From an uncultured Planctomycetota bacterium (lineage in GTDB: Bacteria > Planctomycetota > J058), in the NCBI GenBank assembly GCA_964569055.1, contig CAZMSZ010000005.1, positions 1 through 51,289 of the forward strand: a stretch of 51,289 nucleotides of DNA, read 5' to 3'. Below, piece after piece: positions 21,051 through 44,800 of the stretch. A program made the translations under genes and the position numbers. Under the pieces are notes generated by a model. The model was not told the DNA's origin and ran no database searches. It worked only from the letters and a program-made list of their open reading frames with translations. Position 1 is the stretch's first letter. Every line of letters starts with the position of its first letter.

Positions 21051-21922
21051 GCCGCGCAGGCCTGCTCGAGCAGCGGCAGCACCGGCTCCCCGAGCGCCCA
21101 GCGCAGCTCGACGCAGGGGACAGCCCGCACCACGCGCTCGAGCTCGGCGAGCACGCGCTCCAGCCCGGGGCGGTCCCACAGCGGGGGGAAGGCGTGGAAG
21201 CACAGCCGGCGGAACGCCTCGCCGGCGCGCAGCGGACGCAGGCCGAAGGGCGGGGCGTGCGGCCCGAGGAACGCCAGCCCCGCGAGCGGGGCCGCGCCGG
21301 GGCGCGCGCGCGCCGCCGTCCCGCGCCAGGGCGTGCCCCACACCGCAGGCCGCCCGTGGGGATCCGGCGCCAGGGCGGGCCGCTCGTCGGAGAGCGCCAG
21401 CTCGGGCGGGAGGGCCGCGGCCAACGTCGACTTGCCCCGCCCCGAGCTCCCCGGGAGGAGGAGGCCCCGCCCGCCGAGGTCGAGCCCGCAGGCGTGCACG
21501 AGCGCGCCGCCGCGCAGGCGCGCCAGCCGCGTCTGGAAGGCGAGCTCCAGCAGCGGCCGCGCCGCGTCGAGCGCGGCGCCGCCGGCGGGCAGCCGCTCGT
21601 GGAGCAGGAGGCAGCGGCTCCAGTCGCGCGCCACCTCGGCCTCCAGGCGCACGGCGCCCTCGCCGCGGCCGGGCGCCCAGCGCAGCGCGAGCGCGCCCGG
21701 GTCGTCCTCGTGTTCGCGCAGCTCCCAGGTCGTCCCGGCCGCGAACCGGCGCGCCCCGGCGCGCGGCCAGGGGCGCTCGTCGCCGGCGGCGGCCGAGACC
21801 ACGACCAGGTCGGCCGCCTCCTCCTCGGGCGCGGCGAACCGCGCGAGGGGCGGGTCGGGCTCGCCGTCGGCGCGCAGCTCGATCCCCAGCCCCGCGATCC
21901 GCAGCCGCAGCGGCCCGCTCAC
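21047..21922 (-). CDS. HPr-kinase-related P-loop protein (ScmC/PadeK-like)
   Basis: LVHACG....GLLLPGSSGRGKSTLA...LSDERPAL...WGTPW; GTG 21922 overlaps the Wzc stop. Confidence 0.82.
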   Translation of the reverse strand: MSGPLRLRIAGLGIELRADGEPDPPLARFAAPEEEAADLVVVSAAAGDERPWPRAGARRFAAGTTWELREHEDDPGALALRWAPGRGEGAVRLEAEVARDWSRCLLLHERLPAGGAALDAARPLLELAFQTRLARLRGGALVHACGLDLGGRGLLLPGSSGRGKSTLAAALPPELALSDERPALAPDPHGRPAVWGTPWRGTAARARPGAAPLAGLAFLGPHAPPFGLRPLRAGEAFRRLCFHAFPPLWDRPGLERVLAELERVVRAVPCVELRWALGEPVLPLLEQACAA

Positions 21923-23880
21923 CTGCGGCGCGCGTAGTACTGGTAGTAGGAGCGCCGGGTCGTGAGGCCGCGCACGTCGTTCGCCACCACCCCGAGCACG
22001 TTGGCCTTGGAGGTGCGCAGCGTGCGCAGCGTGCGGACCAGCGCGCGCTGCGGCGTGGTGGCCAGCGCGTACAGCAGCACCACCGCGTCGGCGCGCCGGG
22101 CCACGAACGAGGCGTCCGCCACGGCCGTGAGCGCGGGCGAGTCGCAGATCACGACCGAGAACACCTCGCGCATCTCCCCCAGGACCTCGGCCAGGCGCAC
22201 GGTGGCGAGGAGCGCGCTCGAGTCGTCGACCGGCTTGCCGGCGGGCAGGACGTGCAGCCCGTCGATGTCGGGGATCTGGATCGCCCGCCGCCAGCTCGCC
22301 TGCTCGCGCACGACCTCGGTCACCCCCGGCGCGCGCCCGACCCCGAGCATCTCGTGGACCCGCGGGCGGCGCAGGTCGAGGTCGACCAGGAGCGTCGGCA
22401 CGCCCATCTCGGCGTAGACGCGGGCGAGGTTGACCGCCACCAGCGACTTGCCCTCGCCGGGCTCGGCGCCCGCGACCAGGATCATGCGGCGCGCGGGGTA
22501 GTCGAGCGCCGCCTCGATGTTGGTGCGCAACAGGCGCAGCTCGTCGGACGCGGCGCTGCCCGGCGAGATCAGCCCGGCCGGGTCGGTCTGGGTCGGGTCG
22601 AGCTTGGGGAGCACCGCCAGCGCCGGGAGCCCCGAGGCGAGCTCGAGGTCGTCGACCGTGTGAGCGGTGACGACCACCGACTCGAGCACGATCGGGCTCG
22701 CGAGCGCCAGCCCGAGCGCGGTGAGGAGCGCGAGCTTCCAGGCGCCCGACAGCGGCGCCTCGGCGCTCACCGTCGGCTCCTGCAGCGTCTCCAGGTCGCT
22801 CGAGGTGTCCTGGATCGAGAGCTCGATCTGGCTCAGCCGCCGCCGCAGCCCCTCGTAGGTCTCCTGCACCAGGCGCAGCTCGCGCTGCACCTGCTCGGGG
22901 TCGGACCCGGCGCGCAGCTGGCCGGCGAAGCGCTCGCTGACCTGCGCGCGGAGCCGCTCGACCTCCGCGTCGAGCTCCTCGGCCCGCCGCGCGTCGTCCA
23001 GCGCGTCCTGCCGCAGGCCGGCCCACTGGGCGTCGGCCCCGGCCAGCCAGCGCGCGAGGTCGTCGGGGGCCTGGGCGGCCGCGATCGACGTCAGCGCGGC
23101 GATCGCCGCCTCCGCCGCCCCGACCTTGGGGTGGTCGGGGGTGTACTTCGCCAGCAGCACGTCCCGCGTGTGCCGGCGGCGCCGCCCCTCGACCTCGAGC
23201 TGCTCGCCCGCCTCGGTCACGCGCTCGAGGGCGCGCTCGCGCACGCGCTCCAGCGGGCGCGCCGCCTCGTACGCCTCGAGCACCTGCTGCAGCTGGGTCA
23301 GCTCGCGCTGCTGCAGCGCGATCTGCTCCTCGACGTACTTCTGCAGCTCGGTGTCCTTGCCGCGCTTGGAGCGCACGTCCTGCGCGTTGTACTCGACGAG
23401 CAGCGCCTCGGCGTACGCCGCCACGCTCTCGCGGTCGGGGCCGCGGACCTCGACCACGATGATGTCGGTGTTGGACCGGTTGCTGACCTCCACCCCGAAC
23501 GGGAACGGCACCCCGCGCAGCTCCTCGGCCGAGCGCGCGGAGTACTCCGGCAGGCGTCGCAGCGCGCCGCGGCGGACGACGTCGCTGCCGAGGATCTCGA
23601 GCTGCGTCTCGATCGTGCTCCGCATGCGCAGCGAGGGCAGGTCGCGCCCCACGAGCTGGCTCAGGCCCGCGAGCACGCCGGTGCCCGCCCGGTAGCGCAC
23701 CTCGAACCGACCGACGTAGGTGGTCTGCGCGGTGCTCGCCCACAGGCCGAGCGCGAGGTAGACCAACAGCCCGCCCGCGGCGCCGATCAGCAGCGCGAAG
23801 CGCGCGTAGCGCCGCCAGATCAGGAACCAGCCGGCGGCGAGGTCCGCCTCGCCGCGCGCGGGTCCGGCGTCACGGGCCAC
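21919..23880 (-). CDS. wzc: Wzc-type polysaccharide co-polymerase / BY tyrosine kinase
   Basis: Two TM segments flanking a coiled-coil region with YTPDHPKV; LRTNI, GAEPGEGKS, LLVDLDLRRP, VICDSP, C-terminal Tyr cluster SYYQYY. Confidence 0.9.
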   Translation of the reverse strand: MARDAGPARGEADLAAGWFLIWRRYARFALLIGAAGGLLVYLALGLWASTAQTTYVGRFEVRYRAGTGVLAGLSQLVGRDLPSLRMRSTIETQLEILGSDVVRRGALRRLPEYSARSAEELRGVPFPFGVEVSNRSNTDIIVVEVRGPDRESVAAYAEALLVEYNAQDVRSKRGKDTELQKYVEEQIALQQRELTQLQQVLEAYEAARPLERVRERALERVTEAGEQLEVEGRRRRHTRDVLLAKYTPDHPKVGAAEAAIAALTSIAAAQAPDDLARWLAGADAQWAGLRQDALDDARRAEELDAEVERLRAQVSERFAGQLRAGSDPEQVQRELRLVQETYEGLRRRLSQIELSIQDTSSDLETLQEPTVSAEAPLSGAWKLALLTALGLALASPIVLESVVVTAHTVDDLELASGLPALAVLPKLDPTQTDPAGLISPGSAASDELRLLRTNIEAALDYPARRMILVAGAEPGEGKSLVAVNLARVYAEMGVPTLLVDLDLRRPRVHEMLGVGRAPGVTEVVREQASWRRAIQIPDIDGLHVLPAGKPVDDSSALLATVRLAEVLGEMREVFSVVICDSPALTAVADASFVARRADAVVLLYALATTPQRALVRTLRTLRTSKANVLGVVANDVRGLTTRRSYYQYYARRR

Positions 23881-26607: not shown

Positions 26608-26611
<4 letters not shown>
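25184..26611 (-). CDS. wza: Wza-type polysaccharide export lipoprotein (Poly_export plus SLBB repeats)
   Basis: Lipobox LLAA-C; YTLGPGDVL, VAPDGTITLDLVGAVEVEGRTLEEV, repeated V.GxVxxPG...DALAxAGG, LHDGDVVYVP. Confidence 0.9.
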
Positions 26612-30528
<3,917 letters not shown>

Positions 30529-30529
30529 G

Positions 30530-31150
30530 CTAGCCTTCCACGGCAGGGCGTGGCGCGCGCACCGTCGCATCGGCGAGGGCGACGAGCGTGCCCCCCGAGC
30601 TCGGCGGGTGGGCGGCGCCGTTGGGTCCCTGGGTCGACGTGTCGCCGGGCAGGAGCGTGGCCGCGCTCTCGAGCTGCTCGCGCGTCGTGGTGCCGCCGAT
30701 CAAGGTCGGCGCCGCCCCGGGGCCGCGCGGGGCGATCAGCGTCCCGCCGTCCGTCGCGTCGACCCCCGCCATCAGCGTGCGATCGTCGGGCCCGGCCGGG
30801 AGCACCTCGCGAGCCTGCGTGGGCGAGCCCCCTTCCACGAGCCGCTCGAGCACCCCCGCCAGACGATCGACCAGCGCCTCGAGCTCGGCCGCGCTCCCCG
30901 GCTCGGGCTGGCGCGGCACGGGGGCTGGGCGGGGCGGAGCGAGGCGGTCCGCCTCGGCCCGCACGGCGTCGAACACCAGCTCGAGCGCCTGCTCGACCTC
31001 GGCCTCGGTGAGGTGCCCCTCGGCGACGAGCCACTCCGCCAGCTGCGGGCGCTCCCGCACGCCCGGCGGCGGCTCGGGGGGCGACAGCGCGAGCCCGTGG
31101 CGCTCGGCCACGAGCTCGAGGAGCAACCGTTCCGTCCGCGTGAGGCTCAT
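30530..31150 (-). CDS. Hypothetical protein homologous to the N-terminal domain of the adjacent kinase, with Thr-motif tail
   Basis: LTRTE...LVAEGHLTEAEVEQALELVFDAVRAEADR matches the kinase N-terminus; start 31150 or 31174. Confidence 0.7.
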   Translation of the reverse strand: MSLTRTERLLLELVAERHGLALSPPEPPPGVRERPQLAEWLVAEGHLTEAEVEQALELVFDAVRAEADRLAPPRPAPVPRQPEPGSAAELEALVDRLAGVLERLVEGGSPTQAREVLPAGPDDRTLMAGVDATDGGTLIAPRGPGAAPTLIGGTTTREQLESAATLLPGDTSTQGPNGAAHPPSSGGTLVALADATVRAPRPAVEG

Positions 31151-31236
31151 CCCCCCCCGAAACTCCAGCGCCATGGTAATCGCGCATCCCGCCCGGTTCC
31201 AGGAAGCTCCACGACGGAGCGGCTAGCATGGGAGCC

Positions 31237-32487
31237 ATGGAGCTGACCCCCGAGGGGCTGGTCGCCGATCTGCCGACCGTCTCGTTCGGCGAGTTCTCCG
31301 CGGCGCTGCACCGCGACGCGGCGAGCGCCCGCGTGCCGATCGGGGCCATGCTCGAGCTCACCTACCGCTGCAACTTCGACTGCGTCCACTGCTACGTGGT
31401 GGAGCATCGCCCGCAGGGCGAGCTGAGCGCCGCCGAGCTGCGGCGCGTCCTGGAGGAGCTGCGCGCCGCCGGGACGCTGTTCCTCACGATCACCGGCGGC
31501 GAGCCGCTCACGCGTCCCGACTTCGCCGAGGTGTGGCGCGCCGCCGCCGAGCAGGGCTTCCTGCTCACGCTGTTCACCAACGGGGGCCTGATCGACGAGG
31601 CGACGCTGGCCCTGTTCGCCGAGCACCCCCCCCACAAGGTCGAGGTCACGCTGTACGGCGCGTCGGAGGCGACCTACCGCGCGGTGACGCGGCGCGGCGC
31701 CATGCGGGCCCGGGTGCTCGCCAACGTCGACCGCCTGCGCGCGCTCGGCGTGGCGGTCTACCTCAAGGCGGTCGGCCTGCGCGAGAACGCCGGCGAGATC
31801 GCGGCGCTGCGGGCCGAGGCCGAGGCCCGCGGTGTGGGCGGCTTCTTTCGGTTCGACAACGAGATCACCGTGCGCACCGACTGCAGGCGCGGGCCGGCGG
31901 ACCACCGCCCGAGCGTGGCCGCCGCGCTGGCGCAGGACCGCGAGGACCCGCGCCGGATCGCCGAGCTGCGCCGCCTGTACCTGAAGACGCGCGGGCGCCG
32001 CGACCTGCGTGACCGCCGCCTGTTCCGCTGCGGCGCGGGGCGCACCTCGCTCGTGATCGACCCGCGCGGGCGCCTGCAGACGTGCGCGCTCCATCGCGAC
32101 GAGCCGTTCGACCTGCGCCGCGGGACCGTCGCCGAGGGGTGGCGGCACCTGCAGCAGGTCGCGGCGCGCGAGATCACGCGCCCCACGCGCTGCCGCAGCT
32201 GCGACAAGGTCGCGCTGTGCGGGGCCTGCCCCGGCAACAACGCGCTGGAGAGCGGCGGGGACCGCGAGGCTCCGCCCGACTTCCTGTGCGAGCTGACCTA
32301 CGCGCGGGTCGAGGCGTTCCTCGCCGACCTCCGCCCCCGCGCCGTCGCTCCGCTCGGTCGGCGCCTGCCGCTCCACCTGGCGCGGACGTGCCCGCGCCCG
32401 TGGCTCGCGGTCCGCGAGCCGCTCGGTGAGCTGATCTGGCCGGAGCCCCGCGGGCGCCCGCCGCGGCGGCGGCTCCCCACGGTGTGA
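31237..32487 (+). CDS. Radical SAM/SPASM-domain protein (peptide maturase type)
   Basis: ELTYRCNFDCVHCY, TGGEPL, FTNG; SPASM CGAG...IDPRGRLQTC and CRSC-x5-CGAC...FLC. Start 31228 or 31237. Confidence 0.93.
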   Translation: MELTPEGLVADLPTVSFGEFSAALHRDAASARVPIGAMLELTYRCNFDCVHCYVVEHRPQGELSAAELRRVLEELRAAGTLFLTITGGEPLTRPDFAEVWRAAAEQGFLLTLFTNGGLIDEATLALFAEHPPHKVEVTLYGASEATYRAVTRRGAMRARVLANVDRLRALGVAVYLKAVGLRENAGEIAALRAEAEARGVGGFFRFDNEITVRTDCRRGPADHRPSVAAALAQDREDPRRIAELRRLYLKTRGRRDLRDRRLFRCGAGRTSLVIDPRGRLQTCALHRDEPFDLRRGTVAEGWRHLQQVAAREITRPTRCRSCDKVALCGACPGNNALESGGDREAPPDFLCELTYARVEAFLADLRPRAVAPLGRRLPLHLARTCPRPWLAVREPLGELIWPEPRGRPPRRRLPTV

Positions 32488-32623: not shown

Positions 32624-32788
32624 CTACGAGGTGTCGGCGGTCTGGCACGGGTCGGCGCCAGACTCGCACGGGTTCTCCGTCGGGCCGCCCGTGGCGGCGC
32701 TCTTGCACCCGGTGGAGAGGTTGTCGCCGGGCAGCCGCCGCTGCACCTGCACCAGCTGAGGGGGGACGTAGGGACGGCGCTCGCTCAC
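32624..32788 (-). CDS. Putative RiPP precursor, 54 aa, with YxxPxL leader and three Cys
   Basis: MSERRPYVPPQLVQVQRRLPGDNLSTGCKSAATGGPTENPCESGADPCQTADTS; GTG after purine-rich gagagag; lies between the rSAM and PqqD genes. Confidence 0.8.
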   Translation of the reverse strand: MSERRPYVPPQLVQVQRRLPGDNLSTGCKSAATGGPTENPCESGADPCQTADTS

Positions 32789-32947
32789 GTCTCTCTCGAT
32801 ACTCGCGTCAGCCCCGCGCGTCAAGGAGGAGCCCTGCGCCTCGAACGAAGCCGAACGGCGCCGGGCCAGGGCGAGCAGGCCGTCACGCAACACGACAGCC
32901 TCCCGAGCGCGGAGCGCCGCCCGGGCCCGTGTTATGGTCTCGCCGCC

Positions 32948-33433
32948 ATGCTCGAGCCGATCCTCCCCTACGCCGTCCAGGCCGGTCAGCTCTCGCTCGA
33001 GGCGTTCGCCGAGCGGTTCCCCGATCCGGTGCTGGTGTTCGAGCCGTTCGCCGAGGGCGAGGCGGGCACGTTCGAGACCGTCGGCGGGAGCGGCGGGCCC
33101 GGCGGCGGCACGCGGCAGGTGGGCGTGCTGCGCAAGCGGCCGGAGGCGAACGCGTTCGCCATGATGATCACGATCGGCCGCGCCCGGAACAACGACATTC
33201 AGCTGCTGGCGCAAGGCGTCTCGAAGTTCCACGCCTACGTGACCTACAAGGAGGGCGTCCCCACGCTCGTCGACGCAGGCTCGACGCTCGGCACGTACGA
33301 GGGAGGGCGGCGGCTGCCGCCCCGCGGCGAGCCGGTCGCGCTGCGCGACGGCGCGGAGCTGCGCTTCGGCACGGTCGTCGCGACCTTCCTCAGGCCGCCC
33401 GCGCTGCACGCCTACCTCAACGCGCTCGGCTGA
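32948..33433 (+). CDS. FHA-domain protein
   Basis: ITIGRARNNDI...VSKFHA...LVDAGSTLGT...LRDGAELRFG. Confidence 0.9.
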   Translation: MLEPILPYAVQAGQLSLEAFAERFPDPVLVFEPFAEGEAGTFETVGGSGGPGGGTRQVGVLRKRPEANAFAMMITIGRARNNDIQLLAQGVSKFHAYVTYKEGVPTLVDAGSTLGTYEGGRRLPPRGEPVALRDGAELRFGTVVATFLRPPALHAYLNALG

Positions 33434-33725
33434 GGCAGCCCGCCCGCTCGAGCTGATCGAGGAAGCGGTCGAGGTCGCCCGCGGCGCGCGCCTCGTCGAC
33501 CGCGAAGCTCGCGAGCAGCGCGGCGAGGAGCTCGCGGCGCGTGCGCGGGCGCGCCAGCTCCTCCCACAGGAAGCTCGCCACCGGGCCGTCGAGCAAGAAC
33601 AGCATCACGCCCGGCGGAGCGCCGCCGACCCGCGGCACGAGCAGGTCGCGCGCGCCCGCGGCCCGGCGGACGTAGCGGTCGTCGCGTCGGAAGGTGGCGT
33701 CGTCGAGCTCGAGCGGGGGGGTCAT
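33417..33725 (-). CDS. Stand-alone PqqD-family protein (RiPP recognition element)
   Basis: YVRRAAGARDLLVP...FLLDGPVASFLWEEL...LLASFAVDEARAAGDLDRFLDQLERAGCL. Confidence 0.88.
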   Translation of the reverse strand: MTPPLELDDATFRRDDRYVRRAAGARDLLVPRVGGAPPGVMLFLLDGPVASFLWEELARPRTRRELLAALLASFAVDEARAAGDLDRFLDQLERAGCLSRAR

Positions 33726-33763: not shown

Positions 33764-33792
33764 TTGACTCGGCCCGGCCGACCCGCCACCAT
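33764..33792 (+). promoter_or_regulatory. Putative sigma-70-type promoter of the transporter operon
   Basis: TTGACT-N17-CACCAT, about 30 nt upstream of CTG 33822. Confidence 0.5.
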
Positions 33793-33821
33793 TCCTCTCG
33801 CCTGGGGCGGGGGGGAGCTGC

Positions 33822-34343
33822 CTGAAGAAGATCCTCTACATCCTGGCGAAGCTCCAGGAGCGCGACCTCGACTGGCTCGTCGCCAACGGCGCGCGCGAGC
33901 GGGTCCCGCCGCGCAAGGTGCTCATCACCGAGGGGCAGCCGCTCGAGGCCCTGTACGTGGTGCTCGAGGGCAGGCTGCGGGTGCGCGTCGGCGACACCGA
34001 GCTCGCCGAGCTCGGCCCCGGCGAGGTGGTGGGCGAGCTGTCGCTGCTCGACGCGCGGCCGCCCGCGGCCACGGTCGAGACCGGGGCCGAGGAGGCGCTC
34101 GTCCTCTCGGTACCCCGCTCGTTCCTGCAGCGCCGCCTCCTGACCGACGAGGGCTTCGCGGCGCGCTTCTATCACGCGGTCGGGTTGTTCCTCGCCGAGC
34201 GCCTCCGCGCCACCGTGCTCCGCCTCGGCTACGGCGACGGCGAGCGGGCGACGCTCGACGAGCTCGACGAGGAGCAGCTCGACCAGGCCACGCTCGCCGG
34301 CAGCCGCTTCGACTGGCTGCTGCAGCGGCTCCGCGGGCGCTGA
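33822..34343 (+). CDS. Stand-alone cyclic-nucleotide-binding protein (probable CTG start)
   Basis: (M)KKILYILAKLQERDLDWL...LITEG..LYVVLEG..LGPGEVVGELSLLDARPPAATV; GGAG upstream; in-frame TGA at 33765 and no ATG/GTG/TTG until 33918. Confidence 0.85.
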   Translation: MKKILYILAKLQERDLDWLVANGARERVPPRKVLITEGQPLEALYVVLEGRLRVRVGDTELAELGPGEVVGELSLLDARPPAATVETGAEEALVLSVPRSFLQRRLLTDEGFAARFYHAVGLFLAERLRATVLRLGYGDGERATLDELDEEQLDQATLAGSRFDWLLQRLRGR

Positions 34344-34351
34344 GGACGCGC

Positions 34352-35827
34352 TTGGCGAAGCACGAGCCCACCCAGGACGGCCCCTCCGCGGCGGAGCGCT
34401 CGCGCCCGAGCCGGATCTTCCGGCGCGCGTCGCTCGAGCGGCTCAACTCGCCCGAGCGCCTCGACGAGCTGATGGGCGTGATCGGGCCGCAGTCGTGGAT
34501 CGCGCTGGGCGGCCTGGCGCTGGTGGTGGCGGCCGGGCTGGCCTGGGCCGTGCTCGGGCGGGTGCCGGTCACGATCGAGGCGCGGGGGGTGCTCGTGCAC
34601 CCGCGGCGGGTGGTGGACGTGCAGGCGCCGCGCGACGGGACGCTGGGCGGCCTGCGCCTGACGCCGGGCGCGACCGTGGCCGAGGGGGACGTGCTCGCCA
34701 CGCTCGACCGGCCGCTGCTGCGCCACCAGCTCCAGCTCCGGCGCGAGGAGCTCGAGCTGCGGCGCGAGCGGCTGCGGGTCAGCGCGCCGCTGCACGCGCG
34801 GCGCGTGGAGCTCGAGCGCGCCGCGCTCGAGCGCGAGCGCGCCGCGCTGCGCCGGCGGATCGAGGAGTCGCGCGCTCAGGCCGACCGGATCCTCGACGCC
34901 AACGAGGAGACGCGCGAGGAGCGCCGCCGCGGGATCGAGCGGCAGCTCGAGCTGTTCCGCGGGCTCAACGAGCGGCTGCAGGCGCGCGTGAAGGACTACA
35001 CGGCGCTCGAGGAGCGCGGCGTGATCAACAAGCACGTCGTGCTGCAGGTCGAGCAGGCGCTCCTCAACGGGCTGCTCACCGTGCAGGAGCTCGAGGCCCG
35101 CCTGCAGGCGCTCACCGTCGAGGCGATCGGGGACCAGGCCGAGGACCTGCGCCGGCGCCACGCGATCATCGAGCTCGAGACGCAGCTGCAGGCGCTCGAC
35201 GCGCGCGAAGGGCGACTCACCGAGGAGACCAGCCGGTTCGCCTTCGAGGAGGAGGAGCCGGTCCGCGCGCTGGAGCGCGAGGTGGCGCGCCTCGAGGAGC
35301 AGCTGGGGCAGGAGAGCCTGGTGCGCAGCCCCCACGCCGGGCGGGTGATCGAGGTGCTCGCCGCGGCGGGGCAGGTCGTCAGCCCCGGCGACCGCCTGGC
35401 CGTGCTCGAGGTGCAGGACGTCGAGCGGCCGCTCGTGAGCCTGAGCTGCTTCGCGCTCAAGGACGGCAAGCGGGCGCGCGAGGGGCTGACCCTGCAGGTC
35501 TCGCCCGAGAACGTGGAGCGCGAGCGCTACGGGGCGGCGCTGGGGCGCGTGACGCGCGTCGCGGCCTTCCCGAGCACGCTCGAGGAGGTGAGCCGGCTGG
35601 TGGGCAACGAGGAGCTCGCCCGGGCGCTGGTCCCCGCCGGCGGCTGCATCGTGGTCTACGGCGAGCTGACGCCCGACCCCGCCGCGCCCAGCGGCTTCGC
35701 CTGGTCCTCCTCGCGCGGGCCCGACCTGCGCCTCACCCCGGGGACGCCGACCCGCACGCGCCTGGTGGTCGAGGAGCGCTCCCCGCTGAGCTTCGTGCTC
35801 CCCGGGCTGGACGCGACGCGCCGATGA
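34352..35827 (+). CDS. NHLM/NHLP bacteriocin system secretion protein (HlyD-like membrane fusion protein)
   Basis: IFRRASLERLNSPERLDELM, TM, GRVPVTIEARGVL, coiled coil, RSPHAGRV, SGFAWSSSRGP; TTG start after gagga. Confidence 0.92.
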   Translation: MAKHEPTQDGPSAAERSRPSRIFRRASLERLNSPERLDELMGVIGPQSWIALGGLALVVAAGLAWAVLGRVPVTIEARGVLVHPRRVVDVQAPRDGTLGGLRLTPGATVAEGDVLATLDRPLLRHQLQLRREELELRRERLRVSAPLHARRVELERAALERERAALRRRIEESRAQADRILDANEETREERRRGIERQLELFRGLNERLQARVKDYTALEERGVINKHVVLQVEQALLNGLLTVQELEARLQALTVEAIGDQAEDLRRRHAIIELETQLQALDAREGRLTEETSRFAFEEEEPVRALEREVARLEEQLGQESLVRSPHAGRVIEVLAAAGQVVSPGDRLAVLEVQDVERPLVSLSCFALKDGKRAREGLTLQVSPENVERERYGAALGRVTRVAAFPSTLEEVSRLVGNEELARALVPAGGCIVVYGELTPDPAAPSGFAWSSSRGPDLRLTPGTPTRTRLVVEERSPLSFVLPGLDATRR

Positions 35828-38049
35828 GCGCGGCCAGCCCGCGGCGGGTCCGCACCCCGGTCCGCCTGCAGATGGAGGCGGTCGAGTGCGGCGCCGCCTG
35901 CCTGGGGATCGTGCTCGCGCACCACGGCCGCTGGGTGCCGCTCCCCGTGCTGCGCCGGGAGTGCGGCGTGTCGCGCGACGGCAGCAAGGCGAGCAACGTG
36001 CTCAAGGCGGCCCGCCAGTTCGGGCTCGAGGCGCGCGGGTTCAAGAAGGGCCTCGAGGAGCTGCGGACCCTCCCGCTGCCGGCCGTCCTGTTCTGGAACT
36101 TCAATCACTTCGTCGTGCTGGAGGGCTTCGGCAAGGACCGCGCCTACCTCAACGACCCGGCGAGCGGGCACCGGACCGTCACGCTCGGCGAGCTCGACGA
36201 GTGCTTCACCGGGGTCGTGCTGACCTTCGTGCCCGGGCCGGAGTTCACCCCGGGCGGGCGGCCGCCCAGCGTGGTGGCCGCCCTGCGGCGCAGCCTGGGC
36301 GGGTCGCGCCGCGCGCTCGCGTTCTGCGTGCTGGCCGGGCTCCTGCTCGTCACCCCGGGGCTGGCGCTCCCCGTGCTCACGCAGGCGTTCGTGGACCACG
36401 TGCTCGTGCAGGGGCGGACCGACTGGCTCGCGCCGCTGCTCGGGATCATGGCGGGCGCGGTGGCGCTGCAGGCGCTCTTGCAGCTCCTGCAGGTGCACCA
36501 CCTGCGCGGGCTGCGCCTGGAGCTCGCGATCCGCGCCTCGGCCGGGTTCCTCCAGCACGTGCTGCGCCTGCCGGCCAGCTACTTCGCGCAGCGCTACAGC
36601 GGCGAGCTCGCGGGCCGCCTGGCGCTCAACGACCGGGTGGCGCGCGTGCTCTCCACCCAGCTCGCGCAGGTCGGGATCGACGGCGTGATGCTGGTGTTCT
36701 ACGCCGGCCTCATGCTGTGGTACGACCCCGTCCTGGCGGGCGTGGGCGTGGCCGCCGCGCTGATCAACGTGCTGACCCTCGACCTCGTGGCGCGCAGCCG
36801 GACCACCGCGAACATGCGCCTGCTGCAGGAGCGCGGCAAGCTCGGCGGGGTGGCGGTCGCCGGGCTGCAGGGCATGGAGACCCTCAAGGCGGGGGCCGAG
36901 GAGGCGGGCTTCTTCGCGCGCTGGGCGGGGCACCACGCCAAGCTGGTCAACGCCCAGCAGGAGCTGGCCCTCGCCGATCAGGCCCTGGGGACGGTGCCGG
37001 CCCTGCTCTCGAGCTTCACCGCCGCGCTGGTCCTGTGCCTGGGCGGCGTGCGGGTCATGGACGGCGCGCTCACGATCGGCATGCTCGTGGCGTTCCAGCT
37101 CGTGCTGGCGCGGTTCCAGCGCCCCGTCACGACCCTGCTCGAGCTGGGCAGCACGGTGCAGGTGCTGCGCGGGGACCTCGAGCGGCTCGACGACGTGCTC
37201 GAGCACCCGCTCGACCCGCTCCCCGAGGCGCAGGCCGCCGCGGCCGACGCGGCGGGCGACGGGACGGTCCGGCTGGAGGGCTACCTCGAGCTCGAGGACG
37301 TGACCTTCGGCTACAGCCCGGTCTCGCCGCCGCTGATCGAGGGCCTCTCGCTGCGGGTGACGCCGGGCCAGCGCGTGGCGCTCGTGGGCGGGAGCGGCTC
37401 GGGCAAGTCCACGGTCGCCAAGCTGGTGTGCGGGCTGTATCGCCCCTGGTCGGGGACGATCCGGCTGGACGGCCGGCCGCTCGAGGAGGTCCCGCGGCAG
37501 GTGTTCGCCAACTCGGTCGCGATGGTCGAGCAGGACCTGTTCTTCTTCGGCGGGACGGTGCGCGACAACGTGACCCTGTGGGACGCGGCGATCGAGGACG
37601 AGGGGCTGGAGCGTGCCTGCCGCGACGCGCACATCCACGACGTGATCCTGACCCTGCCGGGCGGCTACGGCGCCGAGCTGCTGGAGGGGGCCGCCAACCT
37701 CAGCGGCGGGCAGCGCCAGCGGCTCGAGATCGCGCGCGCGCTGGTGGAGGACCCGGCGATCTTGATCCTGGACGAGGCCACCTCGGCCCTCGACGCGGAG
37801 ACGGAGCGGCGAATCGACCGCAGCCTGCGCCTGCGCGGCTGCACCTGCCTGGTGATCGCGCATCGCCTCAGCACGATCCGCGACTGCGACGAGATCGTCG
37901 TGCTCGACGAGGGGAAGGTGGTGCAGCGCGGCACGTTCGAGGCGCTGGTCGCGCAGGGCGGGCCGTTCGCCGAGCTCGTGCGGCAAGGCGAGGGGGAGCT
38001 CGCGCTGGGCGCGGCGGGGCGCGCCGAACAGGACGCCGGCCATGCCTGA
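35824..38049 (+). CDS. NHLM-type ABC transporter with C39 peptidase domain (PCAT)
   Basis: RTPVRLQMEAVECGAACL, CGVSRDGSKA, FWNFNHFVV, LNDPA; GGSGSGKST, NLSGGQRQR, ILDEATSALD; ATGA overlap. Confidence 0.96.
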   Translation: MSAASPRRVRTPVRLQMEAVECGAACLGIVLAHHGRWVPLPVLRRECGVSRDGSKASNVLKAARQFGLEARGFKKGLEELRTLPLPAVLFWNFNHFVVLEGFGKDRAYLNDPASGHRTVTLGELDECFTGVVLTFVPGPEFTPGGRPPSVVAALRRSLGGSRRALAFCVLAGLLLVTPGLALPVLTQAFVDHVLVQGRTDWLAPLLGIMAGAVALQALLQLLQVHHLRGLRLELAIRASAGFLQHVLRLPASYFAQRYSGELAGRLALNDRVARVLSTQLAQVGIDGVMLVFYAGLMLWYDPVLAGVGVAAALINVLTLDLVARSRTTANMRLLQERGKLGGVAVAGLQGMETLKAGAEEAGFFARWAGHHAKLVNAQQELALADQALGTVPALLSSFTAALVLCLGGVRVMDGALTIGMLVAFQLVLARFQRPVTTLLELGSTVQVLRGDLERLDDVLEHPLDPLPEAQAAAADAAGDGTVRLEGYLELEDVTFGYSPVSPPLIEGLSLRVTPGQRVALVGGSGSGKSTVAKLVCGLYRPWSGTIRLDGRPLEEVPRQVFANSVAMVEQDLFFFGGTVRDNVTLWDAAIEDEGLERACRDAHIHDVILTLPGGYGAELLEGAANLSGGQRQRLEIARALVEDPAILILDEATSALDAETERRIDRSLRLRGCTCLVIAHRLSTIRDCDEIVVLDEGKVVQRGTFEALVAQGGPFAELVRQGEGELALGAAGRAEQDAGHA

Positions 38050-40663
38050 GTCGCGCCGGCTGGCGGGCAACGAGCCGCTGCCGCTCGCGCCGCAGGGCGC
38101 GTGCTGGCGGGTCGAGGCGGGCTGCCTGGCGCTGTTCTCGGTGGCGCAGCGCGACGGCCACCCCTGGGGCGCGCGCAGCTACCTGTTCACCGTCGAGGCC
38201 GGCGCCGCGGTGTTCGGGCTCCCGAGCGACGTCGACGACGCCGAGCGCTCGGTCCTGGCCGTCCCGCTCGAGGCGGCCGAGGTGGTGGAGACCACGCTGC
38301 TCGACCTGCCGCGCGAGGAGGGGCGGGCGCTGTTCGAGGCCTGGGCGCGGCGCTGGGCCACCTGCCTCGACGTGGCCCCGCCGGTCGCGGCGTCCGGGCG
38401 GGGCTGGCTCTCGGCCACGCCGGCCTTCCACCGCTGGGTGCTCGCGGCGCTGGAGCGACGGGCGGAGCGGGAGCACGCCGCCGAGGTCCGGCAGGTCACC
38501 ACGCGCAGCCGGCGCACCACCGAGTCGGCGCGGATCGCGGTGGCCGCGCTCAGCGCGGTCCTGCAGCGCTCCGGCGCCGGCGCGCCCGCCGTGGGGGACG
38601 CCCTGTACCGCGCGGCGTTCGCGGTCAGCGCCCACCTCGGGACCGAGCTGCGGCCGCTGCCGCAGTCCGTCGACCCGGCCCGGATCCGCGACCCGCTCGA
38701 GTCGCTCGCCCGCGCCTCGCGGCTGCGCGTACGGCGGGTCCTCCTGCGCGAGGCGTGGTGGCGGCGCGACTGCGGCCCGCTGCTCGCCTACCGCGGGCCC
38801 GACGAGCTGCCGGTCGCGCTGCTGCCGCGGCCCGGCGGCGGCTACGAGCTGTTCGACCCCACGGCGGAGGAGCGCCGCCCGCTCGACGAGGAGCTCGCCG
38901 TCGAGCTCGACCCGGTGGCGCGGAGCTTCTACCGCCCGTTCCCGGAGGGGCCGCTCGGCGCCCGCGACGTGCTCCGCTTCGCCCTCAGCGGCCGCGCCCG
39001 GGACATCGCCGGCCTGCTGGCGAGCGCGCTCGCGGTCACGCTGCTCGCCATGACCCTCCCGATCGCCACCGGGGTGGTGATCGACGTGGCGATCCCCACG
39101 GCGGACCGCGCCCTGCTGGCGCAGGTGCTGGGGGGCCTGCTCGCGGCCGCCCTCGGCGCGGGCATGTTCCGCCTCTCCTCGGGGCTCCTGCTGGCGCGCG
39201 CCGAGGCCCGCGCCGACGCCGACACCCAGGCGGCGGTGTGGGACCGCCTGCTCCGGCTGCGGCCCGACTTCTTCCGCGGCTTCACGGTCGGCGACCTCCA
39301 GGCGCGGCTCGGCGCGATCGGGCAGATCCGCAGCCTGCTCAGCGGCACCACGCTCCGCACGGCGCTGGCCTCGGCGCTGGCCTCGCTCAACCTCGTGCTG
39401 CTGGTGGCGATCAGCCCGCCGCTGGCGCTGATCGCGGTCGCGGCCGCGCTGGTCAGCGGCGCCGCCACGGCGCTCGCCTGCGTGGCCCTCGTGCGCGCCG
39501 AGCGCCGGGCGCAGCGGCTGCAGGGCGAGCTGTTCGGCGCCGTGGTGCAGATCGTGCAGGGGATCACCAAGCTGCGCGTGCGCGCGGCCGAGGAGCGGGC
39601 GTTCCTGTTCTGGGCCAAGCGCTACAGCGAGCAGCAGGAGCTGGTGCTCGAGACGCAGCGGCTGCGGGACGCGCTGGCGGTGCTGAACACCGCGCTGTGG
39701 GCGGCGAGCCTGATGGTCCTGTTCGCGGCCGCGACCGAGCTGCTCGAGCGGCCCGGCGGCGGCCTGTCGACCGGCGAGTTCCTGGCGTTCAGCGCCGCCT
39801 ACGGCGCGTTCCTGGGCGGCGTCACGCATCTCGCCGGGGTCCTGCCCGACCTCGCGGTGGTGCCGGTGCTCGAGGAGCGCGCCCGGCCGATCCTCACGGC
39901 CGAGCCGGAGGTCTCGCTCCTCAAGGCCGACCCCGGCCGGCTGCGCGGCCGGCTGGAGCTGCAGCGGGTCGTGTTCCGCTACCGGCACGACGGCCCGCTG
40001 GTGCTGCACGACGTGAGCCTCGCGGTCGAGCCCGGCGAGATGGTGGCGCTGGTCGGCCCCTCGGGGAGCGGCAAGTCGACGCTGCTGCGCCTCCTGCTCG
40101 GGTTCGAGCTGCCCGAGTCGGGGGCGGTGCTCGTGGACGGTCAGGACCTGCGCGGGCTCGACATGCAGGCCGTGCGCCAGCAGCTCGGGGTCGTGCTCCA
40201 GGCCGGCCGGATCGGCGCCGGCTCGATCTTCGAGACCGTGGCCGGCGGGGCGCGCGTGACCCTGAGCGAGGTCGAGGAGGCGCTCCGCATGGCCGGCCTG
40301 GCGGAGGACGTGCGGCGCATGCCCATGGGCGTCCACACCGTGATCAGCGAGGGCGGCATGAACCTCTCGGGCGGCCAGCGCCAGCGGCTGCTGATCGCGC
40401 GCGCCCTGGTGCGTCGCCCGGCCGTGCTGCTGTTCGACGAGGCGACGAGCGCGCTCGACAACCGGACTCAGGCGATCGTGACCGAGAGCCTCGAGCGCCT
40501 CGCCGTCACGCGCGTTGTGATCGCGCACCGCCTGAGCACGATCCGCAGCGCCGACCGGGTCGTGGTGATCGATCAGGGGCGCGTCGTCGAGGAGGGCGAG
40601 TTCGACGCCCTGATGGCCCGCGGCGGCCTGTTCGCGCGGTTGATGCGCCGGCAGATGGCCTGA
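38042..40663 (+). CDS. NHLM-type ABC transporter ATP-binding/permease subunit without peptidase
   Basis: RRVLLREAWWRRDCGPLL, FYRPFP, QAAVWDRLLRL, GPSGSGKST, LSGGQRQR, FDEATSALDNRTQ. Confidence 0.96.
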   Translation: MPESRRLAGNEPLPLAPQGACWRVEAGCLALFSVAQRDGHPWGARSYLFTVEAGAAVFGLPSDVDDAERSVLAVPLEAAEVVETTLLDLPREEGRALFEAWARRWATCLDVAPPVAASGRGWLSATPAFHRWVLAALERRAEREHAAEVRQVTTRSRRTTESARIAVAALSAVLQRSGAGAPAVGDALYRAAFAVSAHLGTELRPLPQSVDPARIRDPLESLARASRLRVRRVLLREAWWRRDCGPLLAYRGPDELPVALLPRPGGGYELFDPTAEERRPLDEELAVELDPVARSFYRPFPEGPLGARDVLRFALSGRARDIAGLLASALAVTLLAMTLPIATGVVIDVAIPTADRALLAQVLGGLLAAALGAGMFRLSSGLLLARAEARADADTQAAVWDRLLRLRPDFFRGFTVGDLQARLGAIGQIRSLLSGTTLRTALASALASLNLVLLVAISPPLALIAVAAALVSGAATALACVALVRAERRAQRLQGELFGAVVQIVQGITKLRVRAAEERAFLFWAKRYSEQQELVLETQRLRDALAVLNTALWAASLMVLFAAATELLERPGGGLSTGEFLAFSAAYGAFLGGVTHLAGVLPDLAVVPVLEERARPILTAEPEVSLLKADPGRLRGRLELQRVVFRYRHDGPLVLHDVSLAVEPGEMVALVGPSGSGKSTLLRLLLGFELPESGAVLVDGQDLRGLDMQAVRQQLGVVLQAGRIGAGSIFETVAGGARVTLSEVEEALRMAGLAEDVRRMPMGVHTVISEGGMNLSGGQRQRLLIARALVRRPAVLLFDEATSALDNRTQAIVTESLERLAVTRVVIAHRLSTIRSADRVVVIDQGRVVEEGEFDALMARGGLFARLMRRQMA

Positions 40664-40789: not shown

Positions 40790-40999
40790 ATGAAGGACGA
40801 GCAGCAGGGCGAGCTGAGCGAGCAGGACCTCGAAGCGGTCGCGGGCGGCGGCGGCCCGCCGTGCCTCTCGATCACGCCCGGCGCGGGTCAGCCGCCCGAC
40901 CGCGAGTTCTGCGACGGCAGCGACGACGGCCACCCCGGGCCGAACATCACGATCAACCGCGCCGACGGGACGACCTTCGACCCGCACGACCGGAGCTGA
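40790..40999 (+). CDS. Double-glycine-leader precursor peptide, 69 aa
   Basis: MKDEQQGELSEQDLEAVAGG leader plus 49-aa core with 2 Cys; strong SD gagggagggag; directly downstream of the C39 transporter. Confidence 0.88.
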   Translation: MKDEQQGELSEQDLEAVAGGGGPPCLSITPGAGQPPDREFCDGSDDGHPGPNITINRADGTTFDPHDRS

Positions 41000-41061: not shown

Positions 41062-41176
41062 ACGAGCGCTCCCGCGGACCCCGGTTGATGTGCGGGCCCC
41101 TCGCGGCTCAAATCGAGCCCGGCCTTACATTCGAACCCAACGACCAACATGAGGAAGAAAGCACGAGGGGGACCCA

Positions 41177-41737
41177 ATGCCGCTGAAGATCGCTCCAACC
41201 CAGGCCAAGCCCGGAGAACCGTTCACCATCGTCGACACGCCCGACGGGCGCCTCGTCGACGGGAGCGTGGCCGTGTTCCGGCTGGCGACGGGCGCCATGA
41301 TCGAGGCCTCGCTCCGCACGCACAACCCGCACAAGACGGCGCAGGGCCGCCTGCCGCTCTCCATTCCGGGCGGCGAGTACTCGGTGGCCGTGCGCCTGCC
41401 CAGCGGTGAGGAGCTCGCGCTCGGTTCGTTCACCGTGCTCGCCGAGGCGCCGACCGAGGCGACCATCTCGCCCGCCCAGGGGCCGGTCGGCACGAGCTTC
41501 ACGATCAGCGATCCGGAGGCTCGGATCGAGAGCGGCGACCGGGCGATCTTCTATCAGGAAGGGACCGATCCGGAGTTCGGCGTCCAGGCCGACGAGATCG
41601 CGGTCAGCGCCGACGGCATGACGCTCAGCGCGCGCGTGCCGAGCGCCCCGAGCGCGCAGTACTTCATCGCCGTGCGGCCCTCGGCCACGCTGCCCTCGCG
41701 GTTCGGCGACCTGCCGTTCTTCGTGACCGCGAGCTGA
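41177..41737 (+). CDS. Hypothetical protein of two tandem IPT/TIG-like beta-sandwich domains
   Basis: IAPTQAKPGEPFTIVD / ISPAQGPVGTSFTISD internal repeat; SD gagggg; no signal peptide seen. Confidence 0.7.
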   Translation: MPLKIAPTQAKPGEPFTIVDTPDGRLVDGSVAVFRLATGAMIEASLRTHNPHKTAQGRLPLSIPGGEYSVAVRLPSGEELALGSFTVLAEAPTEATISPAQGPVGTSFTISDPEARIESGDRAIFYQEGTDPEFGVQADEIAVSADGMTLSARVPSAPSAQYFIAVRPSATLPSRFGDLPFFVTAS

Positions 41738-41854
41738 TCCGAGGCGCCGCGCCGGGCTCCCCACGCCGTCCTGGCGGGGGAGCCCCGGCGATCGGGTTGC
41801 GGTCGGGCCGGAGCCCTGCCATGGTGCAGGTGCCCGTGGACGAGGGGCGGGGAC

Positions 41855-44800
41855 GTGGGCAGGCGAGCACCGGTCGCGCGCAGGCGTGGCACCCGCAGCC
41901 GCATCGTGGCCGGGGCGCTCGTCCTGTTGCTAGCGGGAGCGTCGGTCGCCTGGGGCTTGGTCGTCGTCACTCGCGAGCCCGTGGCCTACTTCACGGCCCA
42001 GCTGAACAACGCCAGCGCGCCCGACGACCTCGACGGCGTCACCCTGACCAGCGGCACGAACTTGGCGGGGCTGGTCGACGACGACACCTCGACCGTGGCC
42101 GATTCCCTCAGCTCGAACCAGGGCAAGCTGTTCGTGTTCGAGGTCGCGATCGGCGTCCCCAAGACGGTCGTCACCCGCTTGACCCCGATCGTCACGGCGA
42201 GCTCGTCGAACGCGGGCGGCCTGTTCATCGAGAAGGGGCAGACCTGGGAGAGCGTCGCCGCCTTCAGCGGGACGACCGCCGAGGAGCTCCGCGGCGACAT
42301 CACGCTCGACCTCGAGCAGTACATCGGCGGGGCCGGCGACGAGACGGTCCGGCTGGGCCTGTTCCAGCCCGACCCGGGCCCGTCCCAAACGCTCGAGGTG
42401 ATGGAGGTCGACCTCGAGGTCGAGTACGACGACCCCCCGGTCATCGTGGACACCACCGCCACCCCGGCCTCGATCGACGCGATCGGCGGCAACACGACGA
42501 CGCTGCGGGTCGACTGGAGCGACAGCGACACCGCGTCGTCGGGCTTCACGGTGGAGCTGTGGGTGCGCGGCCCCGACGACACGACCGAGCTCCAGCTCCC
42601 GGGGACGCCCACCATCACCGACGAGGGCGGCGGGAACTTCAACGCCACGCTGAGCTGGGACCCGCCCGACGCGACCACGCCCGTCGGGCTCTACGACCTG
42701 CGCGCCATCGTCCGGGACGGGCTCAGTCAGATCAGCGACACCTACGCGGGCAACGCGGACGAGCTGCAGATCACGGCCTCGGTCGACCGCCCCCCCGTGA
42801 TCGCCGCGGGCGCGGTACAGGCCAGCCCGCCCTTCATGCGGTCGGGCGGCCCCGGCGGCGCGCTCGAGGTCGAGTTCCTCGATCCGGACCTCCCCGCCCC
42901 GGGGACGTTCCGGGTGACGCTCGCCGTGCGGGAGCCGGACGACACCACCGAGGTCACGCTGATCACCTCGGGCGCCAACGGGTCCACCGGGACCAACGGC
43001 GCGGGCACCCTGACGGTGAGCGCGCTGGACGGGTTCGGCCGCTATCGGGCCTCGCTCCCCTGGACCCCCCTCGGAGGGCAAGCCACAGGTCGCTACGACC
43101 TGCGCGCCGCGGTGAGCGATCAGAGCGGGGCCGGCGGGACGGGGATCGACCCGTACGCCGCGAACCTCGACGAGCTCACGCTCGTCACGGGGACCGTCTA
43201 CTACGTCAACGACGGCGCGACCACCAACGACACGGTGTGCACCGCGGCGGGGAACGACGCCAGCGACGGCCTCAGCCCCGCCACCCCCAAGGCGACCGTG
43301 GCGGACGTGCTCGCGGCCTACGGACCGCTCGGCCCCGGGGACTGGGTGTTCATCGAGGCCGGCGCCTACGACTTCGACCAGCCGATCTCACTCAGCGCGG
43401 CGGACAGCGGCGCCCCTGGCGACCCCGTGGTGATCCAGGGCGCCCGAGTCGGCGCCACGCTGCTGACGTCGATCTCCGACGGCCCGAACCCCAACGAGCG
43501 CCTGGTGCACGTGAACGGCGCCAGCGACGTGGAGATCCGCGACCTCCAGCTCACGTCCGCCGCGACCGCCGGCGGTGCGGGCTACGGCGTCGAGATCACC
43601 GGCGGGACCGACGTGCACGTCGTCGGGTGCGAGGTGAGCTCGAGCGCCGACACGGGCATCCTGATCACGGTCACCAACCCCGCGGTCGCGCGCCACCGGG
43701 TCGTGGATTGCACCGTGACCGGCAACGCGCGCTTCGGAATCCACGTCGAGCGCCAGCAGCAGTGCGCGATCGAAGGCTGCGACGTGCGGGACAACACCCT
43801 GGGCGGCATCAAGATCGCCGACCGCGCGCTCGGCCCGACGGTGCGCCGCTGCCGGGTCGCGAACAACGGGGTGTTCCAGATCGCCGTCCAGGGCGTCGAC
43901 AACGCGGGCGGCTCCGGTTCGGAGTCCAGCACCCAGGCCAACCCCGCGCTCGTGGAGGACTGCGTCGTGTTCGGGGCCTCCACCACCGGGATCTGGATGG
44001 CGGGCCCCGGCAGCCACGCCGTCGTCCGCGGCAACCTGGTCTACGGCCCCGCCCGCTGCATCCGCTTCGGCGGGGATCCAGAAGGCGGGGCCCAACCGTC
44101 CGAGTTCGGCGTGATCGTCAACAACACGGCGCACACCACTCAGCCAGGCGCCAACTTCGCGGCGGTCGCGATGGTGAACGGGAGCAGCGACTTCCTGATT
44201 ACGAACAACGTCCTCTCCGTCGCGGGAGCCGGCACGGCCGCCATCTGGCTGAGCTCCGCCAATGAGCCCGGCACGTCGAACTGGAACACCTTCCACGTGG
44301 ACGGGGCCAGCGGCGCGCTGGCCGCCCGCAACGGCGCCGCCACGCTCCCAACGCTCGCCCTCTGGCAGGGCACGCTCAACTCGCCCGACCCGGACAGCCT
44401 CGAGGCCGATCCCCTGTTCGTGGACGACACCCACGTCGACCTGTTCCAGCGCGACTACCACCTGCAGAGCGAGGCCGGGCGCTGGAACGGGACCACGTTC
44501 GTGACCGACGCCCAGACCTCGCCCTGCATCGACGCGGGCGATCCGGCCGTCGACTTCGGCGCCGAGACCCAGCCCCACGGCTCGCGCATCAACCAGGGCG
44601 CGTACGGCGGGACGGCGCAGGCGTCGCGCTCACGGCGCATCTACGTGACCGCGACCGCCCCGAGCCTCGACGACCTCAACAGGCTCCCGCTGCCCGTCGG
44701 CAGCGACCTCGACCTGACCTTCAGCGAGGACGTCGAGGCCACCACGGTCGACCCGGGCACGCTGGTGCTGCGCGGGTTCATGGGGACGGCGACCGCCACC

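Follow-up and report, generated by a model that had tools for sequence, protein, structure and literature searches.

A serine-ended, cysteine-containing peptide gene beside a radical SAM/SPASM enzyme in an uncultured Planctomycetota bacterium, and its likeness to phosphorylated lasso and linear polyphosphorylated peptides

The window analysed here is a stretch of 51,289 nucleotides from an uncultured Planctomycetota bacterium (assembly GCA_964569055.1, contig CAZMSZ010000005.1, positions 1 to 51,289 of the forward strand), and the element in question is a short gene on its minus strand, 32788..32624. The frame is a genuine gene and encodes a small peptide with cysteine residues. We consider it probable that it encodes the precursor of a ribosomally synthesised and post-translationally modified peptide (RiPP), made in a five-step pathway with a PqqD protein, a radical S-adenosylmethionine (rSAM) enzyme of the SPASM type, an HprK-like protein and a PF14907 protein. 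The peptide would very probably be modified by the neighbouring rSAM enzyme and, judged by its sequence, belongs to a widespread family of Ser-ended peptides whose chemistry has not been studied in the literature searched. A sequence-only reading of the window had already described a 54-aa gene hidden at the tail of a spurious 261-aa open reading frame (ORF), adjoining an rSAM/SPASM gene and a pqqD gene, and both claims are borne out below. It had passed over the near-invariant C-terminal Ser, the HprK-like and PF14907 genes, the wider family and a 69-aa peptide with a double-glycine leader. The closest comparison is with G003, a genome of the same family and another genus (locus L025, G003:C166). 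The central features are these:

32788..32624, minus strand: precursor peptide gene, 54 codons plus stop (32626..32624) with a GTG start; supported by its translation, GC content at third codon positions (GC3), the G003 orthologue and the ratio of nonsynonymous to synonymous substitutions (dN/dS)
32753..32770, minus strand: leader motif Y7-V-P-P10-Q-L12, of the form [YWF]xxPx[LIVMFA], the presumed binding site of a RiPP recognition element (RRE); P10 is invariant in 13 aligned precursors
32627..32707, minus strand: presumed core Cys28-Ser54, with a putative boundary; it has Cys at 28, 41 and 48, lacks aromatic residues and ends in Ser
31228..32487, plus strand: rSAM/SPASM maturase of 419 aa, convergent with the precursor gene; PF04055 (1.7e-25), CX3CX2C motif and SPASM Cys, 68% identical to its G003 orthologue
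33417..33725, minus strand: discrete PqqD-type RRE protein of 102 aa; PF05402 (4.5e-11), orthologue in G003
32948..33433, plus strand: FHA-domain protein, divergent from the precursor gene; PF00498 (8.8e-16)

At the 75.6% GC of the window open frames are little informative by themselves, and coding signal was therefore judged by position-specific GC. Across 32640-32759 the three phases have GC contents of 0.68, 0.95 and 0.60, the 0.95 phase being the third codon position of the precursor's minus-strand frame. The 261-aa ORF (33409..32624, minus strand) ends in this 54-codon frame, and between 32940 and 33419 the high-GC phase (0.93-1.00) is the third codon position of the plus-strand ORF 32948..33433. 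This switch of phase, together with the PF00498 match, indicates that the 261-aa ORF, over its first ~200 codons, runs antisense to a genuine FHA gene. Translation of 32788..32624 gives the peptide that the sequence-only reading had quoted. When the 54-aa peptide was searched with tblastn against the orthologous locus of G003, it matched at 63% identity (E 7.5e-21); aligned over their full length the two peptides are 64% identical, keep the three Cys and the final Ser, and have in common the M-S-E start, RRPYVPP, PGD.L.TGCKS, GGP, two P-C pairs and the last Ser. The dN/dS between the two copies is 0.49, with 16, 9 and 23 differences at codon positions 1, 2 and 3 over 53 codons, and the antisense frame across the G003 gene is split into ORFs of no more than 32 aa. 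Both peptides start with M-S-E, and the in-frame sequences upstream are unrelated, which fixes the start codon. The gene is therefore real on the strength of its GC3 of 0.95, protein-level conservation in G003, the family-wide pattern and the dN/dS of 0.49.

The expectation that standard gene callers would miss the gene did not hold, as a public collection contains an 89-aa protein call (P0003) of the same gene on the same contig. Among proteins of 29-95 aa in a collection of 5.8 billion, this call was the only homologue retrieved, and no call in that size range was found for the G003 copy. No paralogue of the 54-aa peptide was detected by tblastn in its own genome (next best E 0.08). A consensus scan of 32300-33100 for promoters and terminators returned no site, and an alignment of the regions upstream in the window and in G003 was uninformative. 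A TTGACG hexamer (window 32819-32824, minus strand; L025 7952-7957, minus strand) ends 30 nt before the precursor start codon in both genomes, and no clear Shine-Dalgarno sequence was seen before the G003 gene. Although the consensus scan found no promoter, this hexamer may be one, serving a leaderless or near-leaderless precursor mRNA. Among the sequencing runs listed as containing this stretch none is of RNA; four are DNA runs from a single soil study, one of them perhaps its source.

The partners of the precursor are conserved with it. G003 encodes orthologues of the rSAM enzyme, of PqqD (55% identity) and of the FHA protein (52%); its locus also keeps a 214-aa protein and a Ser/Thr protein kinase, and pqqD there is immediately adjoined by an HprK-like gene and a further pqqD copy. 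Close relatives of this locus are scarce. A profile of the peptide (A1), run against 401 genomes of the phylum, gave clear matches in G000 and G003 alone. Ten further matches were marginal (E 9e-4 to 9e-3); of the eight that were translated, the one in G106 is a true distant relative and seven are chance-like, and those in G202 and G268 were left out. Among genome and metagenome contigs, the G003 record was the only one with a full-length rSAM relative above 50% identity, the best metagenome pieces reaching 45-47% on partial contigs. The window thus belongs to a sub-lineage that is rare (2 of the 401 genomes sampled) and whose gene set is scattered.

The divergent precursor-FHA pair (32624-33433 in the window, 7745-8488 in L025) has turned around as one block between the two genomes, with the orientation of the rSAM and pqqD genes on either side unchanged; the precursor gene is convergent with the rSAM gene in the window and with pqqD in G003. 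A search for flanking inverted repeats able to explain the flipped pair found GC-rich, chance-like pairs alone.

Similar peptides occur well beyond this sub-lineage. Homologues of the rSAM enzyme with 29-40% identity over nearly the full length are found in many lineages: 36 of the 401 sampled genomes carry one at E 1e-30 or better, and at that threshold a library of 1.84 billion proteins holds 937 clusters (50% identity). The flanks (1.5-4 kb) of homologue loci were searched for a short ORF with [YWF]xxPx[LIVMFA] and Cys, a search of the kind that the sequence-only reading had called for, and 26 of the 46 proved to have a similar peptide next to the rSAM gene (11/13, 2/5 and 13/28 in the three subsets). 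In an alignment of 13 members, M1, P10, C28 and S54 are invariant, the aromatic position of the motif is Y, F or W throughout, and the sequence after the first Cys is hypervariable in length and content. The 26 peptides all have the motif, with the first Cys 18-21 residues further on; they contain 2-5 Cys each and end in Ser (24), Thr (1) or Asn (1), and in 12 of them Lys-Ser/Thr comes straight after the first Cys. No Pfam or NCBIfam family matched any of the 13 members (E up to 1). Tailoring genes detected by tblastn in the flanks of 13 loci were HprK-like (7), pqqD (7), PF14907 (5) and S24/S26-like peptidase (5), and PF14907 homologues are present in the G106, G039, L044 and L048 cassettes. 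Pairing of an FHA protein with the precursor was seen in the window and G003 and was not found in the other related loci.

This wider comparison separates what is general in the peptide from what is particular to it. The YxxPxL leader motif proposed from the sequence is, with the first Cys and the last Ser, the general part, kept across the 13 aligned members and matching the motif of RRE-bound lasso leaders. By contrast, Thr at position -2 of Cys28, put forward as a feature, recurs in just 2 of the 13, and the (N/D)PC repeat does not extend, as xPC, beyond the window and G003. The C-x3-D spacing that had been read as a ranthionine motif has become C-x2-D in G003; acidic residues after Cys are not conserved, and the cores of L043 and L044 have no Asp or Glu at all.

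Two related loci show arrangements of their own. In L041 (G106:C111, 6018-9550) a 666-aa membrane protein of the sulfatase/phosphoethanolamine-transferase superfamily lies between the precursor and the rSAM gene, and the rSAM copy beside it lacks four of the seven SPASM Cys. L026 (G022:C233, 7614-10060) has two tandem rSAM paralogues (34.5% and 34.9% identity to the window enzyme, tblastn) with one W-x-x-P precursor.

The leader motif of the window matches [Y/W]xxPx[L/V/I/F/A], which is given in the accessible parts of PMC13381572 and PMC12710340 as the motif bound by discrete lasso-type RREs. The window's PqqD comes closest to NCBIfam models of lasso-type PqqD chaperones, without reaching the cut-off of any. 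In 12 of 13 members a small residue (Gly, Ala, Ser or Thr) precedes the first Cys, and we infer that the leader ends at Gly27. A structure prediction of the PqqD-peptide complex, as the sequence-only reading had suggested, scored 0.46 against 0.14 for the best of three controls, and so passed a mark that is also passed by 58 of the 80 complexes with known structure and by 2 of the 110 mismatched pairs, 7 of the 80 solved complexes and both passing mismatches having done so at scores of 0.60 or less. At least 89% of the contacts agreed between runs and partner pLDDT was at least 50, our own alignments being the input. The prediction sets the peptide apart from the controls; as support for binding it is equivocal, for the score may reflect likeness to solved lasso RRE-leader complexes.

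In the rSAM enzyme, Cys48, Cys52 and Cys55 form the CX3CX2C motif, and the SPASM region has seven Cys (268, 286, 322, 325, 331, 334 and 354). This set is kept in 14 of 16 full-length homologues, the remaining two being the G106 copy mentioned above and a G039 copy that lacks two. No NCBIfam equivalog reaches its cut-off. The best named family is MftC (TIGR03962; 110 bits against a cut-off of 265), matched in two separate stretches. Scores with other models are 54.7 against 400 for ScmE, 49.3 against 340 for PapB (NF047865; over the rSAM core alone) and 47.8 against 850 for AlbA; the nearest solved structure by sequence is PqqE (6c8v, 1.2e-12). Because alignments to AlbA, StsB, SkfB and TrsS start 50-75 residues into those proteins, the window enzyme lacks their fused N-terminal RRE and has no space for one, which fits the use of a discrete PqqD.

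Two further genes enter the proposed pathway:

21925..21047, minus strand: HprK-like kinase homologue, candidate kinase for the C-terminal Ser
21041..19986, minus strand: PF14907 nucleotidyltransferase (1e-43), start codon uncertain

In the pathway that we propose, the leader (about residues 1-27) would be bound through P-Y-V-P-P-Q-L by the discrete PqqD, as lasso and linear polyphosphorylated peptide (LPP) leaders are, a step suggested by conservation of the motif. PqqD would then hand the peptide to the rSAM/SPASM enzyme, which would most probably link Cys28, Cys41 and Cys48 to carbons of other core residues as thioethers. The gene content further suggests that the HprK-like kinase acts on the C-terminal Ser54, and that the PF14907 nucleotidyltransferase may decorate this residue further, as in phosphorylated lasso peptides and LPPs. 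The HprK-like gene is 59% identical to that beside pqqD in G003 and 39% identical to that of G106. The gene set is scattered in a Wza/Wzc polysaccharide-export locus and ends at a giant C25-peptidase protein, and the product would probably act at the cell surface, because this pairing recurs in relatives. A C25 domain is encoded in the flanks of 4 of 16 related loci (L044, L049, L027 and L043), directly upstream of pqqD and the rSAM gene in L044 and L049.

Some observations weigh against this pathway. The precursor and its enzymes do not form one operon, and the HprK-like and PF14907 genes lie 10 kb from the precursor, beyond the Wzc, FecR, Wza and Ser/Thr kinase genes, which makes their link to the peptide weaker than in G003. 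The HprK-like gene has no Pfam match and reaches 29.8 bits against a cut-off of 200 with its NCBIfam family (TIGR04352, HprK_rel_A; 3.2e-7). A search of the organism's own genome (92.7% complete) with the G039 protein found no S24/S26-type leader peptidase, and both the rSAM orthologue and the peptide are missing from G001, of the same genus (84% complete). In 20 of the 46 loci no peptide of this kind was found within the 1.5-4 kb flanks when the motif was required. For the 28-locus subset, the 13 precursors were chosen from the regex matches by inspection, for a basic stretch ahead of the motif, a start codon nearby and a position adjoining the rSAM gene, and Arg/Pro-rich translations that looked out of frame were dropped. 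The cross-link chemistry, the residues modified and the phosphorylation of Ser54 are all deduced from sequence and gene content.

For the rSAM step itself, Cys-to-carbon thioethers are favoured slightly over everything else together, because each core in the family has 2-5 Cys and the window core has no aromatic residue; the latter excludes aromatic C-C cross-links for this peptide. The strongest competing reading, which we nevertheless regard as improbable, is that the enzyme does other chemistry, such as an MftC-like reaction at the C-terminus, Cys28 oxidation, or formation of an ether or an aliphatic C-C bond, and that the Cys serve as disulfides or metal ligands. MftC acts on the C-terminal residues of its peptide, and the mycofactocin maturase is the best-scoring named family here, with PqqE as nearest solved structure; moreover, within the core only the first Cys and the last Ser are invariant, and possible acceptor residues vary. 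Yet all family scores are far below their cut-offs, 2-5 Cys in every core is the usual signature of sacti- and ranthipeptide substrates, and the last Ser already has a candidate enzyme in the HprK-like kinase.

The remaining genes of the surroundings are these:

30530..31174, minus strand: 214-aa protein without Pfam or NCBIfam family, its gene divergent from that of the rSAM enzyme; the N-terminal half (residues 9-113) is 48% identical to the G003 neighbour
26608..30570, minus strand: Ser/Thr protein kinase with TPR repeats, 1320 aa; PF00069 (2.3e-46), a 49% homologue adjoins the G003 cassette
33768..40663, plus strand: NHLP-type export set of a cyclic-nucleotide-binding protein (TIGR03896), an HlyD-like ORF, a C39-ABC protein (TIGR03796, 1058 bits) and a second ABC protein (TIGR03797, 898 bits)
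40790..40999, plus strand: 69-aa peptide with a double-glycine leader, directly after the second NHLP-type ABC gene
41153..41737, plus strand: 194-aa ORF
41738..51256, plus strand: 3172-aa protein with a C-terminal Peptidase_C25 domain (PF01364, 2.1e-75), beta-helix, Ig-like and many FG-GAP repeats

Going upstream from the rSAM gene, one meets on the minus strand, in order, the genes for the 214-aa protein, the Ser/Thr kinase, a Wza-like protein, FecR, a Wzc-like tyrosine autokinase, the HprK-like protein and the PF14907 protein. The 3172-aa C25 protein is possibly linked to the cassette. A Pup-ligase-family protein (PF03136, 3.5e-69; 10855-12795, plus strand), encoded well away from the peptide genes, neighbours Sir2-family and prokaryotic-RING-finger proteins.

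The export set starts 40 bp past pqqD, and this proximity, with the high TIGR03796 and TIGR03797 scores, the TIGR03896 partner and the conservation of G34-G35 in G003, could suggest that the 54-aa peptide is a client of the NHLP-type C39/ABC exporter, cut after Gly27 or after Gly34-Gly35. We think this unlikely. Cys28 is preceded by T-G, not G-G, Gly35 is followed by Pro, and directly after the exporter genes comes a double-glycine peptide of the set's own. That 69-aa peptide reads ...LSEQDLEAVAGG, then continues into a core containing Gly, Pro and Cys, and it matches bacteriocin leader models weakly (E 0.004 and 0.01). It is probably the client of the export set, more so than the 54-aa peptide, because no exporter homologue was found on the 15-kb contig of G003.

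Starting from the same polysaccharide-export and C25 surroundings, one could picture a surface-bound peptide in place of a diffusible antibiotic. It would be cross-linked by the rSAM enzyme, phosphorylated at its last Ser, perhaps nucleotidylated or glycosylated at that residue, and passed to Wza/Wzc and the giant C25 (PorU/gingipain-like) protein. There it would prime, anchor or cap an exopolysaccharide, or be transpeptidated by the C25 domain onto the cell surface, with the FHA protein and the Ser/Thr kinase gating, in this lineage, the separately transcribed precursor. In this specific form the proposal is doubtful.

A step further down stands a PapB/freyrasin-type ranthipeptide, in which Cys48 would be joined to Asp52 through C-x3-D and the other Cys likewise. 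The core does contain C48-x3-D52 and C41-x4-D46, and the enzyme is of the rSAM/SPASM type with a weak match to the NCBIfam PapB model. That match, at 49.3 bits, is far under the cut-off and confined to the rSAM core, and PapB-type enzymes have a fused RRE where the window has a discrete PqqD. The C-x2-D of the closest orthologue and the L043 and L044 cores without Asp or Glu speak against it as well. Since the spacing is not kept and some cores have no acidic residue, PapB-type Cys-Asp ranthionines are not indicated, and we hold this version of the chemistry to be quite unlikely.

A lasso peptide precursor, for which the YxxPxL leader, the Thr at -2, the discrete PqqD and a kinase and nucleotidyltransferase as in paeninodin-type clusters could be cited, is rejected as very improbable: the window ORFs scanned with Pfam and NCBIfam include no lasso cyclase or B2 protease, core positions 7-9 have no Asp or Glu (the first acidic residue being at position 11 from Cys28), the Tyr-to-core spacing is four residues longer than in lasso leaders, and the conserved partner is an rSAM enzyme. 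Equally improbable, and contradicted by conservation of the protein in G003, the family pattern, the frame-specific GC3 of 0.95 and the dN/dS of 0.49, is a chance open frame in DNA that has long ORFs in all six frames and no ribosome-binding site or promoter by consensus scan.

Much of the new chemistry found in peptides comes from rSAM/SPASM enzymes that work with a peptide-binding partner, and the clade met here is large. The window offers a defined triple of substrate, enzyme and chaperone, with a core whose lack of aromatic residues narrows the possible cross-links and with a close second copy for comparison. To the family it adds a precursor gene that is transcribed separately and forms a pair with an FHA gene, a pair inverted between two genomes. 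The recurring link to polysaccharide loci and giant C25 proteins hints at a cell-surface role that would be unusual for such peptides. A leader of the lasso/LPP type and a kinase and nucleotidyltransferase module appear here joined to an rSAM enzyme, a combination of interest for the way in which RiPP pathways are built up from common parts.

Among known systems, mycofactocin (MftA/MftB/MftC) shares with the window its best-scoring rSAM family, a discrete PqqD-like partner and a small precursor; however, the 110 bits fall under the cut-off of 265, and the window precursor ends in Ser, not Val-Tyr, and contains Cys. The window showed no further mft genes. The SynChlorMet (TIGR04249-04251) and HPr-rel-A (TIGR04352-04355) cassettes, known as NCBIfam models alone, combine HprK-like (ScmC/HprK_rel_A), PqqD-like and rSAM/SPASM parts as the window does, but the window proteins score far lower than the cut-offs: 54.7 against 400 bits for ScmE, 16.6 against 125 for ScmC, 29.8 against 200 for HprK_rel_A and 18.8 against 35 for PqqD_rel_X. 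No paper using the name SynChlorMet for a cassette was found in the literature searched. Sacti- and ranthipeptide systems (AlbA, SkfB, CteB, PapB) resemble the window in three respects: their rSAM/SPASM enzyme carries two Cys sets for auxiliary clusters, recognition depends on an RRE, as is presumed for the window, and the core contains Cys. They differ in that their RRE is fused and not discrete, in having neither a conserved terminal Ser nor a kinase, and in their NCBIfam models, which the window enzyme matches far under cut-off. The recognition motif of sactipeptides is HIxxI and not YxxP, according to the accessible text of PMC12710340, which gives YxxP as a lasso-peptide motif alone; YxxP was not found as an rSAM-RiPP motif in the literature searched. 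Nor did that search, which covered material other than subscription papers and supplements, find papers joining radical SAM, HPr kinase or HprK, PqqD or lasso, and a precursor peptide.

The nearest likenesses are to two other systems. Phosphorylated lasso peptides of the paeninodin type have a YxxP leader, a B1-like PqqD, an HprK-like kinase acting on the C-terminal Ser and a nucleotidyltransferase. The window has the leader, the discrete PqqD, the HprK-like kinase, the nucleotidyltransferase and the terminal Ser; it differs in having neither cyclase nor B2 protease among the ORFs scanned, an rSAM/SPASM enzyme instead, and no acidic residue at positions 7-9. The LPPs (lppA-K-B-S-D-N) were described from Bacillota by Popov et al. 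(Nat Commun 2026; PMC13381572), whose accessible text names an HprK-like kinase and a nucleoside triphosphate (NTP) transferase as tailoring enzymes. As far as that text goes, LPPs are alike in the YxxPx[V/L] leader motif and discrete RRE, in core genes that include an HprK-like kinase and a not yet characterised NTP transferase, and in their polysaccharide-locus setting (PMC13381572). They are unlike in their host phylum, in precursors not described there as Cys-rich, in a SpI-type leader peptidase and an MsbA-like transporter, neither of which was found with the window cassette, and in an extended consensus, YxxPxVLxHQxIxFETxxS, that the window leader does not follow after the motif (PMC13381572). 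A term search of the same text found no mention of radical SAM or rSAM/SPASM, whereas the window has an rSAM enzyme. From these comparisons, we regard the gene set as an undescribed rSAM relative of the phosphorylated lasso and LPP peptides.

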